From a virus (Duplodnaviria; Caudoviricetes): 24,081 nucleotides of DNA. The notes beneath the pieces are model-generated. The model had not been told where the DNA came from. It did not search any database and was given only the letters and a program-made list of their open reading frames with translations. A program made the position numbers and the translations under genes. Of this stretch, positions 3,427 through 18,590 are shown in pieces. The DNA lies in IMG/VR virus record IMGVR_UViG_3300025018_000526, positions 1-24,081 of that record; one strand, given 5' to 3'. The number at the start of each line of letters is the position of its first letter. Position 1 is the stretch's first letter.

Positions 3427-4224
3427 ATGAAATATTTTAGTACATTCTCTGGTATTGGAGGATTTGAACTAGGGATACAGCAGGCATATGAAAATTATAA
3501 TAGAAAACTTTTATATAAACAGGACTCCGAGAGTATATGCAAAAGTATGCCCAACGCTGAGGTCGGACAGGAGCGGGCTAATTGTATTGGATACTCAGAA
3601 ATTGATAAATACGCTATCCAAGTCTACAATAAAAAATTTAACCACAAAAATTATGGAGATATTACAAAAATCAACGCAGACGAGCTCCCCGACTTTGACC
3701 TACTCGTGGGAGGATTCCCTTGCCAATCTTTTAGCATCGCTGGTAAGCGGGGAGGATTTGAAGATACCAGAGGAACAATGTTTTTTGAACTTGCGAGAAT
3801 ACTGCGAGCAAAAAAACCTAGACTATTCATCTTTGAAAATGTTAAAGGACTTCTCAGCCATGACAGTGGGCGAACTTTTAAGACCATCATCCAAGCGCTT
3901 GATGAGCTGGGGTACGACCTACAATGGCAAGTGCTTAACAGCAAATATCACGGAGTACCGCAAAGCAGAGAGAGGGTGTTTATTGTCGGACATCTTAGAG
4001 GAACAAGTAGACCCCAAATATTTCCTATCAGAGAAGATGAAGAAATATCTAGTGAAACAACTGAGCCAAGAGAATCACAACCACAAACCAAACCTGCATC
4101 AACAATTAGAACAAAAGAGGGAACAAGATCAGACGACAACTTCGTTATTGTCAGAGAGGCAACCAGAAAAGGATATAGCGTTGCGGGGGGGCGACAGCAT
4201 AAATCTAGCAGTACCAAACAGTAA
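3427..4224 (+). CDS. DNA (cytosine-5) methyltransferase, N-terminal/alpha part (motifs I-VIII)
   Basis: FSGIGG (I), SEID (II), GDI (III), GGFPCQSFS (IV), FENVKG (VI), VPQSRERVFIVG (VIII); motifs IX and X absent. Confidence 0.9.
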   Translation: MKYFSTFSGIGGFELGIQQAYENYNRKLLYKQDSESICKSMPNAEVGQERANCIGYSEIDKYAIQVYNKKFNHKNYGDITKINADELPDFDLLVGGFPCQSFSIAGKRGGFEDTRGTMFFELARILRAKKPRLFIFENVKGLLSHDSGRTFKTIIQALDELGYDLQWQVLNSKYHGVPQSRERVFIVGHLRGTSRPQIFPIREDEEISSETTEPRESQPQTKPASTIRTKEGTRSDDNFVIVREATRKGYSVAGGRQHKSSSTKQ

Positions 4225-4480
4225 AACAAGACGAGGTAGAGTAGGAAAAGGAATAGCCCAAACACTAGATACCGGAATGCAACAGTACACGCTAACAGAC
4301 AGTGTAGTAAGAAAGCTAACACCAGTAGAATGTGAACGCCTGCAGGGATTCCCAGACGACTGGACAGACATCGGAACAGAGGGGAAAATATCAGATACGC
4401 AAAGATATAAAATGCTAGGAAACGCAGTGACCGTAAACGTGGTAGAGCATATACTAATAAAACTTGCCACCATTCTATAA
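3488..4480 (+). CDS. DNA (cytosine-5) methyltransferase, C-terminal/beta part in the +1 frame (motifs IX-X)
   Basis: RKLTPVECERLQGFPDDWT (IX), QRYKMLGNAVTV (X); frame open over 737 nt of the alpha gene. The true start is uncertain. Confidence 0.8.
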   Translation: MKIIIENFYINRTPRVYAKVCPTLRSDRSGLIVLDTQKLINTLSKSTIKNLTTKIMEILQKSTQTSSPTLTYSWEDSLANLLASLVSGEDLKIPEEQCFLNLREYCEQKNLDYSSLKMLKDFSAMTVGELLRPSSKRLMSWGTTYNGKCLTANITEYRKAERGCLLSDILEEQVDPKYFLSEKMKKYLVKQLSQENHNHKPNLHQQLEQKREQDQTTTSLLSERQPEKDIALRGGDSINLAVPNSKTRRGRVGKGIAQTLDTGMQQYTLTDSVVRKLTPVECERLQGFPDDWTDIGTEGKISDTQRYKMLGNAVTVNVVEHILIKLATIL

Positions 4481-4513: not shown

Positions 4514-6598
4514 ATGCAAAACAAAGAATTTACAGCGGATGAAATAAAACCGTACCCAAAGAATGCGAAGAAACATCCGACAAAGCAATTACTGCAGATA
4601 GCCATGAGCATTAAGGAATTTGGCTGGCAACAACCGATCGTGGTAGACCAGAAAGGAATAATCATCGTAGGACACGGGCGATATTTTGCATATCAAAAAT
4701 TTAAAGACGAGCTAAGACTGGGAAAGCCAGAAATAAACGTATCAAAGCTAACAGAGGGGCAAGCCAGAGCCTACAGAATAGCCGACAACAAGCTCAACGA
4801 GAGCGAATGGGATGAAGATGTCCTGATCGAGGAATTGAAACAACTAGAGGCAGAACTATTCGCCCTAACAGGATTTGAAGAGGATATGATAACCGACAGC
4901 GACGTAGAAGATGACGAAGTGCCAGAGCTACCCGGAACAGCCACATCAAAACTAGGGCAAATGTACAAGCTAGGCGAACACGTAATCATGTGCGGAAACA
5001 GCACCTCGGAAGAAGATGTAAATAAGCTAATGGGGGGCGAGAAAGCTCAAATGTGTTTTACAGACCCACCATACAACATCGACTACAAAGGCGGAATGAG
5101 TACCCACAAACAGAATAAGCGAGAGGGAATCATGAACGACAAAATGAGCGATAATCACTTCTACGATTTTCTAGCAGAGGTAAGCAGACGAATCGTAGAC
5201 CACGTAAAAGGCGGGGTGTACATCTGCATGAGCTCCAGCGAACTGCCAAACCTAAAGAAAGCATGGGAGAGCAACGGAGGACACTGGCAGAGTTTTATAA
5301 TCTGGGTAAAGAACAACTTCACACTAAGCCGGGCAGACTACCAGAACACATACGAGCCAATGCTTTACGGATGGGCAGACGGAATTAAAAACCATTTTTT
5401 TATAGACCGTAGAGATATAGCAAACGTCTGGGAGGACTTAAGAGAAGTAAAAACGACATTTGACGGACAACACACCTCAATAAAATTTCAAGGCTTCGAG
5501 GTAAAGGTAGAGGGCAAGGCGAAAGGCGTAATCAAGAGGAAAAAACAGAGAATAGATATCTGGCGATACGACAAGCCGACCAAGTCAGTAGAACACCCAT
5601 GTCTACCAGCAGGAGAGTTAGTATTTATAAATAATAAATGGCAACCAATTGAAGTGGTGAAAAATGGGAAAAGTGGTTATGGTAAAATTATTGATACTAG
5701 CTCACATATTGCTAAAGAAATTATTGAAATAATGATTAAAGATGGTGTTAAAACAAGGTCAACGAGCAATCATCCATTTTTGGTATTTGAAGAAAAAAGT
5801 AATAGTATTTTTTGGAAAGAGGCTAGACTTATAAAAGAGGGAGATTTTATATTGACTAATAAAAAGATACTTGATACTATTAAACCAGTATGTATAAACA
5901 AGGAAAAGGATACATTACCAAAAAAGGGTATAAAAGAATATTCCATAACGGAAGACTCAGAATGGAACATTGTGTCGTCTGGGAGGAAAGATATGGAAAA
6001 ATACCAAAAGGTAAACAAATCCACCACAAAAATGAAAATAAACTCGACAATAGTATTGGAAACCTCCAAATTGTCAGTACGCTTGAACACAAACGGATAC
6101 ACTCTGGTTGCGAATTTAAAAATGGTAAATGGCACAAAAAGTGCAGTCAGTGTAAAGAAACAAAGCCAGTTACAAAAAAATATTGGTATTTTAGAAAAAA
6201 TGGATGGCTATCAAGCGGTGAATGCAAACAATGTGTTATCAAAAGAGTTTGTGAGAGAAGAAGAATTCGTATTGAGAGAGGTTGGAAACGTCCGAACTAT
6301 AAAAGAAAAAATAAAAGTATATAATTTAACAATTGATGGAATTCCAGCATTCGATACTTTAATAGGGGTAAGTCATAATACAATGAAACCAGTAGCCCTA
6401 TGCCTAGAGGCAGTAAAGAATAGCAGTCAGAAAGGCGACATCGTGCTAGACCTATTCCTAGGGAGCGGTAGCACATTGATAGCCAGCGAGAAAGCCGGGC
6501 GAAAATGCTACGGAATGGAGCTAGACCCAAAGTACATCGATGTGATCATAGAGAGATGGGAAAAGTACACCGGGCAGAAAGCAGAGCGAACCAACTAA
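4514..6598 (+). CDS. ParB-N-terminal domain + N6/N4 DNA methyltransferase (beta class), intein-containing
   Basis: PYPKNAKKH, FGWQQPIVVD, GHGR, YRIADNKL (ParB/Srx); FTDPPY, HP|TMKP, VLDLFLGSGSTLIA, GMELDPKY (MTase). Confidence 0.92.
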   Translation: MQNKEFTADEIKPYPKNAKKHPTKQLLQIAMSIKEFGWQQPIVVDQKGIIIVGHGRYFAYQKFKDELRLGKPEINVSKLTEGQARAYRIADNKLNESEWDEDVLIEELKQLEAELFALTGFEEDMITDSDVEDDEVPELPGTATSKLGQMYKLGEHVIMCGNSTSEEDVNKLMGGEKAQMCFTDPPYNIDYKGGMSTHKQNKREGIMNDKMSDNHFYDFLAEVSRRIVDHVKGGVYICMSSSELPNLKKAWESNGGHWQSFIIWVKNNFTLSRADYQNTYEPMLYGWADGIKNHFFIDRRDIANVWEDLREVKTTFDGQHTSIKFQGFEVKVEGKAKGVIKRKKQRIDIWRYDKPTKSVEHPCLPAGELVFINNKWQPIEVVKNGKSGYGKIIDTSSHIAKEIIEIMIKDGVKTRSTSNHPFLVFEEKSNSIFWKEARLIKEGDFILTNKKILDTIKPVCINKEKDTLPKKGIKEYSITEDSEWNIVSSGRKDMEKYQKVNKSTTKMKINSTIVLETSKLSVRLNTNGYTLVANLKMVNGTKSAVSVKKQSQLQKNIGILEKMDGYQAVNANNVLSKEFVREEEFVLREVGNVRTIKEKIKVYNLTIDGIPAFDTLIGVSHNTMKPVALCLEAVKNSSQKGDIVLDLFLGSGSTLIASEKAGRKCYGMELDPKYIDVIIERWEKYTGQKAERTN
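5852..5880 (+). promoter_or_regulatory. Internal sigma70-type promoter for the nested HNH gene
   Basis: TTGACT(5852-5857)-N17-TACTAT(5875-5880) with extended -10 TG; 9 nt before the ATG at 5890. Confidence 0.65.
5890..6324 (+). CDS. HNH homing endonuclease with C-terminal Zn finger, nested out of frame in the intein
   Basis: GYKRI..MEHCVVWE..GKIPKGKQIHHKNENKLDNSIGNLQIV..EHKRIH (HNH_3-type), then CSQC..CKQC. Confidence 0.88.
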   Translation: MYKQGKGYITKKGYKRIFHNGRLRMEHCVVWEERYGKIPKGKQIHHKNENKLDNSIGNLQIVSTLEHKRIHSGCEFKNGKWHKKCSQCKETKPVTKKYWYFRKNGWLSSGECKQCVIKRVCERRRIRIERGWKRPNYKRKNKSI

Positions 6599-7993: not shown

Positions 7994-8986
7994 ATGTTAA
8001 AAACAGCAGAGTGCGTAAGTCCACGTCACCCGGACAAAATGTGTGACAGAATATCAGATGCAATATTAGACTGGTATTTAAAACAAGACCCACAGGCAAG
8101 AGTAGCGGTAGAAACAATGGGAGGACACGGAAAGGTTTATATTCTTGGCGAGGTGACATCAAAAACTACGCCAATATATAAAACAGCAGTCGAGGGAATT
8201 GTAAGGGATATAACAGGCGAGGAGAATCAAGTAGAATTTAACATAGTAAATCAAAGCCCAGAGATAGCACAGGGCGTAGATACAGGAGGCGCAGGTGATC
8301 AAGGAATAATGGTCGGCTATGCTTGTAGTGAAAATGAGCAAATGATACCGCAGGAATTATATCTAGCGAGAAGTTTATGTAAATTTATATATAAACACTA
8401 CGAGTACGATGGGAAAACACAGGTGACAATAGACGAAAAAGGAACAATATACACGATAGTGGCTAGTTTTTGTAAAGTAGAGGCAAGCGAACTAAGTGAT
8501 TTAGTATACAGATGGATAGATAAAGAATTGCCAGAATATCTAAGCCCAGAGAATGATAGAGAAATAAAACTATATTGCAACCCAGCAGGAGATTGGAATC
8601 TTGGTGGGTTTTCTGCGGATACTGGACTGACAGGTAGAAAGCTAGCGGTAGATAATTACGGAACAAGAGTGCCAATAGGAGGCGGGGCATTTAGCGGAAA
8701 GGATGCAACTAAAGTAGACCGCAGTGGGGCATATATGGCACGTAAAATAGCAGTAGATATTTTAAAGAAAGAAAAGGCAGGGGAAGTGATAGTAAAGATA
8801 GCTTACTCAATAGGCGTAGCAGAGCCAGTAATGGTAACAGCCACGATAGACGGACAGGAGAAAGAGGTGACGTGCTATGACTTAAAACCGCAAGCGATCA
8901 TAGAGCAACTAAAACTAAGAAAGCCAGTATTTGAGAAGACAGCTGAATGGGGTAGCTTTGGAAATGGATTTGAATGGGATAAATAA
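7994..8986 (+). CDS. metK: S-adenosylmethionine synthetase (compact phage type)
   Basis: HPDKMCDRISDAILD, GAGDQGIMVGYA, DGKTQVT, DTGLTGRK, GGGAFSGKDATKVDRSGAY. Confidence 0.96.
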   Translation: MLKTAECVSPRHPDKMCDRISDAILDWYLKQDPQARVAVETMGGHGKVYILGEVTSKTTPIYKTAVEGIVRDITGEENQVEFNIVNQSPEIAQGVDTGGAGDQGIMVGYACSENEQMIPQELYLARSLCKFIYKHYEYDGKTQVTIDEKGTIYTIVASFCKVEASELSDLVYRWIDKELPEYLSPENDREIKLYCNPAGDWNLGGFSADTGLTGRKLAVDNYGTRVPIGGGAFSGKDATKVDRSGAYMARKIAVDILKKEKAGEVIVKIAYSIGVAEPVMVTATIDGQEKEVTCYDLKPQAIIEQLKLRKPVFEKTAEWGSFGNGFEWDK

Positions 8987-15349: not shown

Positions 15350-17431
15350 ATGTCACAAGAAATCATAGCAAAACTAACCGGAAATATTATAATGGCTAGT
15401 CCGTCCGGCTCAAATGGACAAATACAATTTAACAAAAATGGAGTCTTTGGTGGCTTTGGCTCTTATGATGAAGAAAATAATGAGCTAACATTATCTATTT
15501 TAAAATTAACAGGTGAAATAACAGAAGAAAGCCAAGCGATTACACTAGGATATTTAAATACTACTCCAGCAGGGGGAATATCTGCTCTTGATGTAGAAAA
15601 CTGGGATACAGCATTCGGTTGGGGCGACCACGCAGGGATTTATGATGCCCTAGGAGAGGCTGACAGCGTACTAGAGGCTCATAACCTAGAATATGACCAT
15701 TCACTCATAGAAACAGCCCTACAGAGCGAAACAGACCCAGTCTTTACAGCTTGGGATAAATCAACAGGGATTAGCATAACCGAAAGTCAAATATCAGACT
15801 TAAAGACTTATATTCAATCAAGCGAGAAAGGGGCAAATAATGGAGTAGCAACATTGGATGCAGGAGGAAAAGTGCCAAGCACACAACTTCCAGCGACACT
15901 TTTAATTTATAAAGGAGTATGGGATGCCGACACAAACACTCCTGAACTAACAACACCAGACATAACTAAAAAAGGATTTGTTTATAATGTCAGCGTAGCA
16001 GGAACTAAATTCGGAATTTCTTTCAGCTTAGGCGACTGGGCAATTTATAACGATGACGGAGTATTAGAGAAATCAGATAACAGCGATGACGTAACCAGCG
16101 TAAACGGACAGCAAGGGGCGGTAGTATTAAACGCCGATCATATCTCAGACTCAACGACGACAAACAAATTTGTCACTACAGCAGAAAAAGGGGTATGGAA
16201 TGGCAAACAGGATGCACTAGGATACACCCCAGAGAACGCTGTAAACAAAAAAACGACATTAACCGACTCAGATACCGACTATCCGACTACAAGGGCTGTA
16301 AACACCGCTTTGAACGCAAAAGTGAGTTGGGGTGGCGATAGCTTAGCTTCTAAAGGGCTAATTGGCACAACTTCCAACCAACCATTCGGCATAATAACCA
16401 ACAACACTGAGAAAGTAACTGTGTTAGCTAACGGCTTCGTCGGCATCGGAACGACGGCACCAGATAACGTTCTTACAGTAAAGGGCTCCAACGCCTTAGT
16501 TGATATTCAGTCTTCGGCAGACGGACAACTTATTGGGTTCTTGGCGAGGTATAGGAATCATGATACTTTAGGATGCAGGTTTTTATATTCTACGGGAACG
16601 GCTACCTTGTCAATTGATAACTTATTTACTGGAAATAATGCTAACCATAGTGATATATATTTTAGAAATGCCGATACGGGTGGTAATTTGAAAACCAGAG
16701 TAACCATAAAAGGTAGTACCGGCAACGTCGGGATTGGGACGACGGCGCCGGGTAAACAGTTGTCAGTAGTTGGAAATATTGAATCTTTGATTACTCTAGG
16801 TAGTGAGCTGATAACTAATGGCACTTTTGATTCTGCTTTAACGGGTTGGACAAATGGCAGCATGAATACTTTTGTCTGGGATAGCGGTTCTATGCATATA
16901 GTACAGACAGGAACCGGTTGGCCGAGCGTATATACAACTGTCCCTTTAACACCTGGTAATATTTATTATTATTCAATCGACGTGACTGTTAATAGCGGTA
17001 GTTTTCTATTTCTTCAGCAGGGCCCAAACACTACTATTGCTGAGCTTAGTACCAGTAATAGCTTTTCGGGATATTTTATTGCTTCTAGCGACTCTGCCAA
17101 CACAATACGTTTAAAGGGTAGTAATGCTCCAGGTGATTGGAATATTGACAACATATCTATCCAGCCTTATATCTCCGGCGGCATGACTACTCCATTTTTA
17201 GCAGTAAATGACTCTGATCTTTTTGCAGGATATGGAAAAGTTGGGATAGGCACCTCTGCTCCAACAGCTAAGCTAGATGTAGCCAGTGATATCCTCCGAC
17301 TCAGGACAGCTAAGACACCTGCCTCAAGTGGGGCGAGCGGAAATACTGGCGATTACTGTTGGGATGCAGATTATTTATATATTTGTGTTAATACCAACAC
17401 TTGGCGTAGAGTAGCACACGACACTTGGTAG
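15350..17431 (+). CDS. Modular fibre/adhesin with GxVGIGT repeats and a carbohydrate-binding-like module
   Basis: ETDPVF, KGANNGVATLDAGGKVP, YKGVWDA and VTSVNGQQGAVVL fibre motifs; three G(F/N/K)VGIGT(T/S)AP repeats; GSELITNGTFD...IDNISI CBM-like unit; C-terminal TPASS..GDYCWDADYLYIC..NTWRR. Confidence 0.8.
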   Translation: MSQEIIAKLTGNIIMASPSGSNGQIQFNKNGVFGGFGSYDEENNELTLSILKLTGEITEESQAITLGYLNTTPAGGISALDVENWDTAFGWGDHAGIYDALGEADSVLEAHNLEYDHSLIETALQSETDPVFTAWDKSTGISITESQISDLKTYIQSSEKGANNGVATLDAGGKVPSTQLPATLLIYKGVWDADTNTPELTTPDITKKGFVYNVSVAGTKFGISFSLGDWAIYNDDGVLEKSDNSDDVTSVNGQQGAVVLNADHISDSTTTNKFVTTAEKGVWNGKQDALGYTPENAVNKKTTLTDSDTDYPTTRAVNTALNAKVSWGGDSLASKGLIGTTSNQPFGIITNNTEKVTVLANGFVGIGTTAPDNVLTVKGSNALVDIQSSADGQLIGFLARYRNHDTLGCRFLYSTGTATLSIDNLFTGNNANHSDIYFRNADTGGNLKTRVTIKGSTGNVGIGTTAPGKQLSVVGNIESLITLGSELITNGTFDSALTGWTNGSMNTFVWDSGSMHIVQTGTGWPSVYTTVPLTPGNIYYYSIDVTVNSGSFLFLQQGPNTTIAELSTSNSFSGYFIASSDSANTIRLKGSNAPGDWNIDNISIQPYISGGMTTPFLAVNDSDLFAGYGKVGIGTSAPTAKLDVASDILRLRTAKTPASSGASGNTGDYCWDADYLYICVNTNTWRRVAHDTW
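16433..16461. repeat. Palindromic repeat site 1 (candidate recombination site)
   Basis: GGCTTCGTCG-GCATCGGAA-CGACGGCACC, with CGTCG/CGACG inverted arms. Confidence 0.55.
16719..16751. repeat. Palindromic repeat site 2 (candidate recombination site)
   Basis: CCGGCAACGTCG-GGATTGGGA-CGACGGCGCCGG; 10 of 12 arm positions complementary; 288 nt from site 1, direct orientation. Confidence 0.6.
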
Positions 17432-17432
17432 C

Positions 17433-17486
17433 TTGACAACTTAAAACCTTTGTAGTATTTTCTTTAGATTTTGGTATTAGCCAAAA
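17433..17486 (+). promoter_or_regulatory. Promoter and inverted repeat upstream of the recombinase
   Basis: TTGACA(17433)-N17-TATTTT(17456); TTTTGG-N6-CCAAAA at 17469-17486. Confidence 0.5.
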
Positions 17487-17502
17487 CATAATATAAAAAC
17501 AT

Positions 17503-18330
17503 ATGTCAAGGGAATTAAACCAGTTTGAAAAGTTTCTATTAGTCCGCAAGGGCATAGGAATGGTAACCTTAAAGGGCTACAACGATAGCGTAAGGCGATT
17601 AACAAAAGTATTAAAGACAGACGAGCCGAGTCACGAGCAGATAACCGACTACATCGTGGGAATGCACGAAAAGAAATATTCCTACAGCCACATAGTAAAT
17701 ACATCACTGGCGATAGAATGGTATATGCAGTTTATAGGGCGACCAATAAAATTAGGTAGACCGAAAAAACCAAAGCACATTATCAAAGATACGCTGACAG
17801 AGGCAGAGGTGACAATGCTGATAGCCTCGTCAAAAAACATAAGAGAAAAAGCAATCATTTCATTACTAGCCTATTCGGGAATTAGAAACAAAGAATTATG
17901 TGAGCTAAGAGTATGCGATGTAAACCTCGGCGACAATATGCTAAGAGTTTTAGAGGGCAAGGGGAAAAAGGATAGGCTAATAAATATAAGCGGTGACTGC
18001 TCGAGAATACTGATAAATTATTTAAACTATTATCAAAGACGACCGGACGATTATTTATTTACAACTTTAAGGGAAAATAAAAGGTACGGAACGAGCGACC
18101 TGCGAAAGCTAGTGAATGTTTTAAAAAATCGTGCTAAAATAAATAAGAGAATATATCCGCACCTTTTAAGACATAGCCTAGCAACCAACCTGCTAAAGCG
18201 AGGGGCAAATATATATTTAATAAAAGAACAGCTCGGGCATACATTTATAGAAACGACAGAAGTATATTTGAGGAGTTTTCCGATTGACATCAAACATCAA
18301 TATCAAATGTACGTGCCAAGCTATGTATAA
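17503..18330 (+). CDS. Tyrosine recombinase (XerC/D-like)
   Basis: Complete catalytic set: YSGIRNKEL (R), GKGKKDR (K), HLLRH, LGH, TTEVY; short N-terminal core-binding domain and no arm-binding domain. Confidence 0.93.
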   Translation: MSRELNQFEKFLLVRKGIGMVTLKGYNDSVRRLTKVLKTDEPSHEQITDYIVGMHEKKYSYSHIVNTSLAIEWYMQFIGRPIKLGRPKKPKHIIKDTLTEAEVTMLIASSKNIREKAIISLLAYSGIRNKELCELRVCDVNLGDNMLRVLEGKGKKDRLINISGDCSRILINYLNYYQRRPDDYLFTTLRENKRYGTSDLRKLVNVLKNRAKINKRIYPHLLRHSLATNLLKRGANIYLIKEQLGHTFIETTEVYLRSFPIDIKHQYQMYVPSYV

Positions 18331-18359: not shown

Positions 18360-18590
18360 ATGGACTACAAAAATTATCTAGAGAAAAAAGCGAGTGGGAA
18401 TGCTGAGATTATAAAAGCCGGCGGTGGTAATGCTATCGCAGTAAAAAAGTTTGACGTGGATACAGGTGCTCCAGTAGCTCCGGAAATTACAGCAATTGAT
18501 TTAGAAAAGTTAAACGAGGAAAAAGCAGAGCTACAAAAAAAGATTGCTGATATTGATGCAATCATAATCGAAATTAATAAATTAAAATAA
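18360..18590 (+). CDS. Small protein with C-terminal coiled coil
   Basis: 76 aa; LEKLNEEKAELQKKIADIDAII heptads. Confidence 0.65.
   Translation: MDYKNYLEKKASGNAEIIKAGGGNAIAVKKFDVDTGAPVAPEITAIDLEKLNEEKAELQKKIADIDAIIIEINKLK

Follow-up and report, generated by a model that had tools for sequence, protein, structure and literature searches.

A tyrosine recombinase clade linked to fibre genes whose modules are exchanged at repeat-coding DNA

The window analysed here, the whole 24,081-nucleotide (nt) stretch of IMG/VR record IMGVR_UViG_3300025018_000526, is a fragment of a tailed phage that carries genes for the terminase, the portal and the minor and major capsid proteins. This work concerns its fibre gene, which encodes three copies of a GxVGIGT repeat, and the tyrosine recombinase gene that follows (Table 1). 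An original prediction, made from the sequence alone, had regarded the pair as a candidate cassette-shuffling system, in which an intact recombinase without arm-binding domain lies just behind the fibre gene in the head module. The description of the locus was accurate: the recombinase possesses core-binding and catalytic domains only, and its gene starts 71 nt past the fibre stop codon, between the minor capsid and the scaffold/major capsid genes.

Table 1. Features of the fibre–recombinase locus in the window
Feature	Position	Strand	Evidence or remark
Modular fibre gene, MAT-like, 693 aa, three GxVGIGTxxP capping-loop repeats	15350..17431	+	8OJN match, PHROG hits
Constant N-terminal part, phage-type A-rich codons	15350..16432	+	Four-fold sites A 89 / T 35
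Site 1 (GFVGIGTT)	16433..16456	+	Gapped palindrome 16438-16456; relative L394 stops within site
Module 1, T-rich codons; judging by the PDB match, a single beta-helix-type unit flanked by two capping loops	16457..16720	+	
Site 2 (GNVGIGTT)	16721..16744	+	Palindrome 16726-16744, extended arms 16719-16751; L082 junction point
Module 2, T-rich codons (AT skew -0.11); may be a CBM_4_9-like carbohydrate-binding domain	16745..17233	+	
Site 3 (GKVGIGTS), not palindromic	17234..17257	+	L001 starts within equivalent site
Constant C-terminal tip	17258..17431	+	Homologous tip in L001 and P0123
Promoter-like site before recombinase	17433-17461	+	Consensus match only
11+6+11 imperfect palindrome before recombinase	17464-17491	+	9/11 pairs, little above shuffles
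Armless tyrosine recombinase, 275 aa, distinct-clade member	17503..18330	+	PF00589

The PHROG matches of the fibre protein are to tail and tail-fibre families, and a Pfam search of its 693 residues gave no match. Residues 345–476 match PDB 8OJN across two repeats (E 7.6e-8), and the GxVGIGTTxP motif of the window fibre coincides with the capping loop of that structure, which, judged by the match, is probably that of the MAT fibre Bd3182. The MAT fibre paper describes Bd3182 as a trimeric beta-helix whose two identical capping loops are separated by about 96 residues (PMC10769870). Capping-loop repeats bounding beta-helix units, the trait of this protein type, are also found here, since the 8OJN match spans two repeats and the motif is the one reported there. 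Because of this match and the Bd3182 loops, the GxVGIGT repeat may be regarded as a structural joint and module 1 as likely a single unit, and the gene product is, judged by its sequence, a fibre similar to the Bdellovibrio MAT proteins. It resembles them, in the passages covered, in the capping-loop repeat, the spacing of about 96 residues and the chimeric architecture, but is phage-encoded and lacks the S74 chaperone (PMC10769870). A single-chain structure model of the fibre was unusable (pLDDT 38). Module 2 is possibly a carbohydrate-binding domain of the CBM_4_9 type, a lead only, which derives from a TM score of about 0.5 against CBM_4_9-containing clusters in Atlas models.

Modules 1 and 2 are likely foreign to the window phage, because their bias at four-fold degenerate sites (A 30 / T 52) is opposite to that of the 28 other window genes scored (A 1057 / T 426; P 3e-10). 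Host-type genes, namely the relatives of the N-terminus encoded by locus L082 (see below), are also T-rich at such sites (T 41%, A 22%). For module 1 only weak relatives were detected, in 9 of the 251 genomes of a single Patescibacteria order; a search of viral contigs for close relatives of the two modules found none, and the module 2 sequence recurs identically in L082.

The repeat-coding DNA is the place at which fibre modules are exchanged between relatives. As had been anticipated, these differ by whole in-frame modules at the GxVGIGT repeats, and the breakpoints lie within the 24-nt motif. The N-terminus of the window fibre recurs in P0122 and P0123 (93% and 86% identity over residues 150–365), and after site 1 three different modules follow in the three sequences; P0123 has one module and the same tip type, so that both constant ends are kept. 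L394 ends within site 1 and L001 begins within the last site, their contig names carrying the same dataset number. Switches inside the motif are displayed by pairs with near-identity on one side, namely window/L082, L008/L084, L016/L088 (at two sites) and L098/L173, and also by the lower-identity pairs L003/L004 and L162/L163. Three other candidates were not counted: in L177/L179 the switch lies in a low-complexity repeat and not at the motif, the L092 junction is a tandem duplication and not an attachment-site join, and L178 is an in-frame motif variant. Four of five phage records chosen for ending near the recombinase opened inside the fibre gene, in a selected sample in which one case was inferred from an open signal-peptide reading frame. 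At acidobacterial loci constant ends surround variable middles. At three of these (L098, L112 and L169), some 1.2–1.6 kb past the recombinase start, lies a short N-terminal open reading frame (ORF) that stops just after the motif; in L112 it is followed by a new gene ending in the constant C-terminus of other alleles.

Some junctions join phage-type to host-type sequence. L082 shares with the window an identical block of about 770 nt, which starts at 16730, position 10 of site 2, and runs to the end of the intergenic region. Upstream of site 2 L082 encodes a signal-peptide-like N-terminus, joined in frame to the window-type block. The best matches of this N-terminus (57–60%) come from 45 of the 251 Falkowbacteria-order genomes, where the open frames reach 4,524 codons. 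We infer that L082 is a Patescibacteria chromosomal-type gene fused to a phage-type tip, which would make a member of the Patescibacteria the presumable host of the window phage. The recombinase gene is itself mosaic: that of L082 is 99.9% identical to the L001 gene and about 90% to the window gene, shifting from window type to L001 type at the gene start (window 17496–17546), and the window gene diverges from L001 at its 3′ end (18205–18330). In L162 and L163, which derive from two genomes belonging to a single Patescibacteria family, different host repeat genes are joined inside the motif to the same recombinase-bearing segment. An inovirus-like prophage with coat, Zot/pI-like and rolling-circle Rep genes (L162:2614-9633) lies behind the clade recombinase of L162; its free form had 0 exact matches in viral contigs. 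Over its first 26 residues L004 shares 92% identity with part of the L162 host gene. The junctions of L082, L162 and L163, which would be of the left attachment-site (attL) type, come from assemblies only.

The recombinase carries the catalytic set of the tyrosine recombinase superfamily (R-K-H-R-H/W-Y; PF00589, E 7.6e-32), and R128, K153, R223, H246 and Y255 do not vary in an 80-sequence alignment, in which the conservation of H220 is at least 90%. It scores below all NCBIfam cut-offs, in bits 183 against 220 for XerA, 131 against 330 for XerD and 117 against 335 for XerC; XerA is the closest family, and the nearest solved relatives are archaeal XerA proteins. In a quick tree it falls into a distinct clade with a support of 99. 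From three alignment-based locus scans (best 80 loci each), a gene encoding G.[VI]G[IV]G lies within 3 kb at 46 of 102 loci of at least 40% identity, among the matches listed and with duplicates and the window included, as compared with 1 of 140 more distant recombinase loci, likewise among the matches listed. After clustering at 95% identity the linkage became sharper, the repeat gene being present within 3 kb in 38 of 48 assessable clusters (the other 10 have none although 2 kb is available on either side; a further 40 clusters were too truncated to score) and at none of 58 outgroup loci, all with full flanks; the association between recombinase and motif that had been proposed thus stood. 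It is observed in all five multi-member subclades, from phages, Patescibacteria, Bdellovibrionota and Acidobacteriota. Without dereplication, the recombinase lies at the 3′ end of the repeat gene at 39 of the 46 loci, co-oriented at 33 and tail-to-tail at 6, and at 27 of these 39 within 300 nt of the fibre stop. In two phage records (90% and 99% complete) the clade member is the only tyrosine recombinase found. No description of a link between recombinase and fibre repeat was found in the full-text literature searched, a body that leaves out most subscription papers, and the recombinase–repeat system, real and widespread, is apparently undescribed, the role of the enzyme being putative.

A conserved site upstream of the recombinase was sought and rejected: no conserved 11+6+11 or dif-like sequence occurs there across the clade, the best scores for 11-bp arms averaging 8.2 as compared with 7.4 after shuffling, in sequences that are unrelated. 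The acidobacterial flanks contain only a conserved leader and terminator-like hairpins. Several neighbours of clade recombinases may be recorded. A 76-aa coiled-coil-like ORF follows the recombinase in the window (18360–18590) and is missing from the same position in L001. A cysteine-rich ORF of 135–149 aa with CxxC pairs separates the fibre gene from the recombinase in six loci of the Bdellovibrionota branch (L164, L177, L179, L180, L185 and L093). In a Doudnabacteria genome (L174:6013-7385) a reverse transcriptase and a bAvd-like gene, parts of a diversity-generating retroelement, lie just upstream of the clade recombinase, and in L034 a second tyrosine recombinase (4802–5827, minus strand) stands head-to-head with the clade member.

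As to the DNA of the sites, CGTCG-N9-CGACG does occur in the window only at 16438–16456 and 16726–16744, as in-frame direct repeats 288 nt apart; a degenerate form of the pattern, with up to two mismatches, has two matches in the window, and none of 100 shuffles gave two. The codons used are rare for the genome, as had been noticed (GTA 58% and GTC 9%, ACA 52% and ACG 7% in the other window genes), and the third repeat, at 17234, lacks the palindrome. The arms of 12 bp ascribed to site 2 exist as extended arms, but only 10 of 12 positions pair (z -3.0), while the folding of site 1 does not exceed that of shuffled sequences (z -0.1). Similarly, the view that the peptide does not force the palindrome agrees with the non-palindromic site 3, but the Val, Gly and Thr codons dictate three of the five arm pairs, which leaves, as read from the sequence, only four free bases to make it. 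Dyad symmetry is not supported as the defining feature of the sites, and the palindrome was rejected as the selected feature, since among 408 sites paired positions covary no more than unpaired ones; master-base co-occurrence is highest between near neighbours. No inverted copy of the motif is present in the window, and within each listed clade locus all copies lie on one strand. In part, proximity to the enzyme is visible in codon choice. In AT-rich loci the palindromic form is found at 9 of 34 GNVGIGTT sites beside the clade and at 1 of 154 viral background sites, while in GC-richer loci the difference (6 of 20 against 15 of 100) is not significant; the codons AAC-GTC are used at 11 of 18 sites beside recombinases of the Bdellovibrionota branch and at 19 of 150 background sites (P 1e-5), the background being a hand count of the first 150 of 457. 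The signal is, in part, a shared master string that is strongest in its left half near the enzyme, and not a selected palindrome.

Among giant repeat fibres, the 3,964-aa protein of genome G305 (L601:3709-15600, plus strand) opens with a MerR helix-turn-helix; 6 of its 16 sites carry the exact master 24-mer, and at four-fold sites its GC content is 0.75 within the motifs as compared with 0.40 elsewhere in the gene. Two giant GNVGIG fibres of Patescibacteria genomes G064 and G008 (L600:6672-14381, minus strand; L606:5799-13172, plus strand), with Peptidase S74 near the end, start with two Phage_int_SAM_1 core-binding domains and no catalytic domain. These domains might bind the repeat DNA.

Exchange of modules at the motif is supported by the junctions inside it, by the position of the clade at the 3′ ends of the repeat genes, by the host-like codons and by the AAC-GTC excess. 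From these observations we infer that the recombinase itself acts on the repeat, which seems probable when an integrase-like role and shuffling within one gene are considered together. Taken on its own, a relaxed integrase that uses the repeat as attachment core and exchanges fibre modules between phage and host has, in our estimation, an even chance of being correct. Such an enzyme would treat the repeat as a loosely specific core; the phage would integrate into a giant fibre gene of Patescibacteria and fuse the host N-terminus to the phage tip, the arrangement seen in L082; if excision then took place at another repeat, whole modules would stay behind or be carried along with the frame intact, which would give modules 1 and 2 their host-like codons; and repeated exchange would spread one master 24-mer through a shared pool of modules. 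It is tempting to go further and suppose a dedicated and mobile family of recombinases for which the code of a structural protein repeat serves as DNA site, and through which the GNVGIG-fibre genes of phages, Patescibacteria and predatory bacteria become one shared library of in-frame adhesion modules, an integron of protein domains common to phage and host, but this is put forward tentatively.

A number of observations weigh against an integrase of this kind. Crossovers do not coincide: L008 and L084 differ at motif positions 19–21 and are identical downstream, which places the crossover after position 21, while L098 and L173 differ from position 12 and are identical upstream, which places it before position 12. 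One fixed crossover point is therefore not supported, and a strict single-core site is excluded; the spread can be explained by a relaxed enzyme, by subclade-specific cores or by added homologous exchange. Nor do the data show the attR and fixed crossover core of a phage integrase, neither attR nor a displaced host gene end having been found in two incomplete draft genomes, although this is a weak test. The ten clade clusters mentioned above have full flanks and no repeat gene; of 21 swap-like pairs, 16 belong to loci with no clade recombinase in the available DNA; and among 80 strict-motif viral loci that have full flanks a single one has the enzyme at a distance of 3.5 kb or less, as do none of 152 general-motif viral loci (80 with full flanks). 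Apart from the seeds, the clade was not found in 300 Patescibacteria and 215 Bdellovibrionota genomes, of which about 65 and about 62, respectively, carry the repeat, and in one Patescibacteria family it occurs in 2 of 148 genomes, both of them seeds (one of the 301 genomes in the Patescibacteria tallies, G159, is unpublished). The clade recombinase is an accessory gene. Moreover, a second tyrosine recombinase is encoded in one complete phage record, and the Bdellovibrionota copies lie up to 2 kb from the fibre gene with no sign of a prophage. The expectation that palindromic codons would be tied to the enzyme was borne out only in part: the palindromic form occurs at 34 of 222 GNVGIGTT sites, in 14 genomes, in Patescibacteria without the clade, as compared with 15 of 54 sites beside it, and 26 of these 34 are, by hand count, one exact 24-mer, GGCAACGTCGGCATCGGGACGACG. 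Master codons are 2- to 5-fold above flanks at most positions in all four sets, whether the enzyme is present or absent.

Many of these points would be expected if homology-driven recombination at a conserved structural repeat, as at the motifs of T-even tail fibres, exchanged the modules and homogenised the DNA, the recombinase acting on another site or hitchhiking in a hypervariable locus. A 1998 work by Tetart is said, from its title, to concern motif-bounded exchange in tail fibres. The scattered crossovers, the co-occurrence of master bases between near neighbours without excess at paired positions, the common occurrence of the master 24-mer without the clade and the switch of recombinase allele between window and L082 in the first codons of the gene, away from any repeat, all fit this explanation. 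It leaves unexplained, however, why the clade is found at 3′ ends, in both orientations and across phyla, and why AAC-GTC is in excess beside the enzyme, and the sequence shared at the junctions is only about 13–24 nt long; we consider it unlikely, though a serious competitor. Less probable still is the model of the original prediction, an integron of domains in which circles of modules would be excised and re-inserted between palindromic direct repeats of one gene. The three different modules behind site 1, with both constant ends kept in P0123, the variable middles of the acidobacterial genes and the phage records opened inside the fibre gene speak for it, and module variation and clade linkage, on which it drew, are real. 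What is not supported is the array in cis: junctions look more like joins between phage and host than like cassette excision, there is no silent cassette store, the predicted 288-nt deletion and circles were not seen in the contigs examined, the clade loci include neither circular contigs nor terminal-repeat circles of 20 nt or more, spacers differ between sites, the palindrome is not under selection, and shuffling within one gene cannot supply foreign modules. Finally, the junctions could be chimeras of assembly at short repeats, and the recombinase link a matter of shared ancestry only. Every junction does come from metagenomic assemblies, and L082, which could be such a chimera, ends where the window and L001 diverge. 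Yet the shared stretches are shorter than reads, several independent datasets supply junctions, and neither the codon mosaic in the window gene nor the cross-phylum linkage depends on any one of them, which makes this explanation very improbable.

The relaxed integrase proposed here shares traits with several known systems. As in integrons, a tyrosine recombinase adjoins a run of direct sites that separate foreign DNA, but the window enzyme lies far below the IntI models (TIGR02249, 89.9 bits against a cut-off of 265, with the match in two pieces), the units are domains within one ORF instead of separate attC-bounded cassette genes, and no long attC-like hairpins are present. K153 and H220 are 67 residues apart; the K-to-H span in IntI is about 100 residues. 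The traits of a Xer–dif system are also lacking, no Xer cut-off being reached, no conserved dif-like site being seen and the clade not being found in most genomes searched. In SSV1-type and integration-dependent-immunity phages, the integrase has its attachment site inside a gene. There too the integrase adjoins the intragenic site and integration remodels the product, but here the target would be the code of a many-copy protein repeat and both products would be in frame. Among shufflons, of which Rci/sfx is one comparable system, the armless recombinase 71 nt from a variable gene has its counterpart, while inverted crossover sites and silent cassettes do not. The Rin shufflon of Bifidobacterium prophages, in the parts of its description available to us, works by inversion between rix sites of opposed orientation and keeps a store of silent C-termini (PMC6109161). 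It likewise combines an armless XerD-like recombinase beside a receptor-binding gene with a short crossover repeat in coding sequence and a constant N-terminus to which variable parts are joined (PMC6109161); unlike in Rin, the window-type repeats are all direct, internal modules change, no silent store exists and the modules apparently come from other genomes. Motif-bounded exchange in tail fibres and tailspikes has been ascribed, in the portion of that study covered, to homologous recombination with no dedicated enzyme (PMC10408124). Conserved coding motifs with conserved DNA mark the exchange points there as here (PMC10408124), but in the present case the genes have a recombinase clade linked to them, and at the junctions phage genes are connected with host-type ones.

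In the literature covered, no mechanism is named for the mosaicism of MAT fibres and giant Patescibacteria surface proteins; the MAT fibre paper, in the passages covered, names neither a recombinase nor a mechanism (PMC10769870). For fibre mosaicism the clade supplies a candidate enzyme, a 24-nt site and real junctions. If our reading is correct, adhesion domains would be exchanged between a phage and its ultra-small host by the act of integrating, and the recombinase would be a tool for scarless in-frame domain shuffling. Even if the enzyme is not responsible, one DNA string kept in unrelated genomes against local codon bias is real and calls for an explanation.

Elsewhere in the window, a DNA methylase gene containing an intein (4514–6598) is overlapped in another frame by an HNH-like ORF (5890–6324). 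A presumably cytosine-methylase-like gene takes the form of two long ORFs that overlap in different frames (3427–4480), and a phage-encoded S-adenosylmethionine synthetase (7994–8986) lies near two methylase genes.

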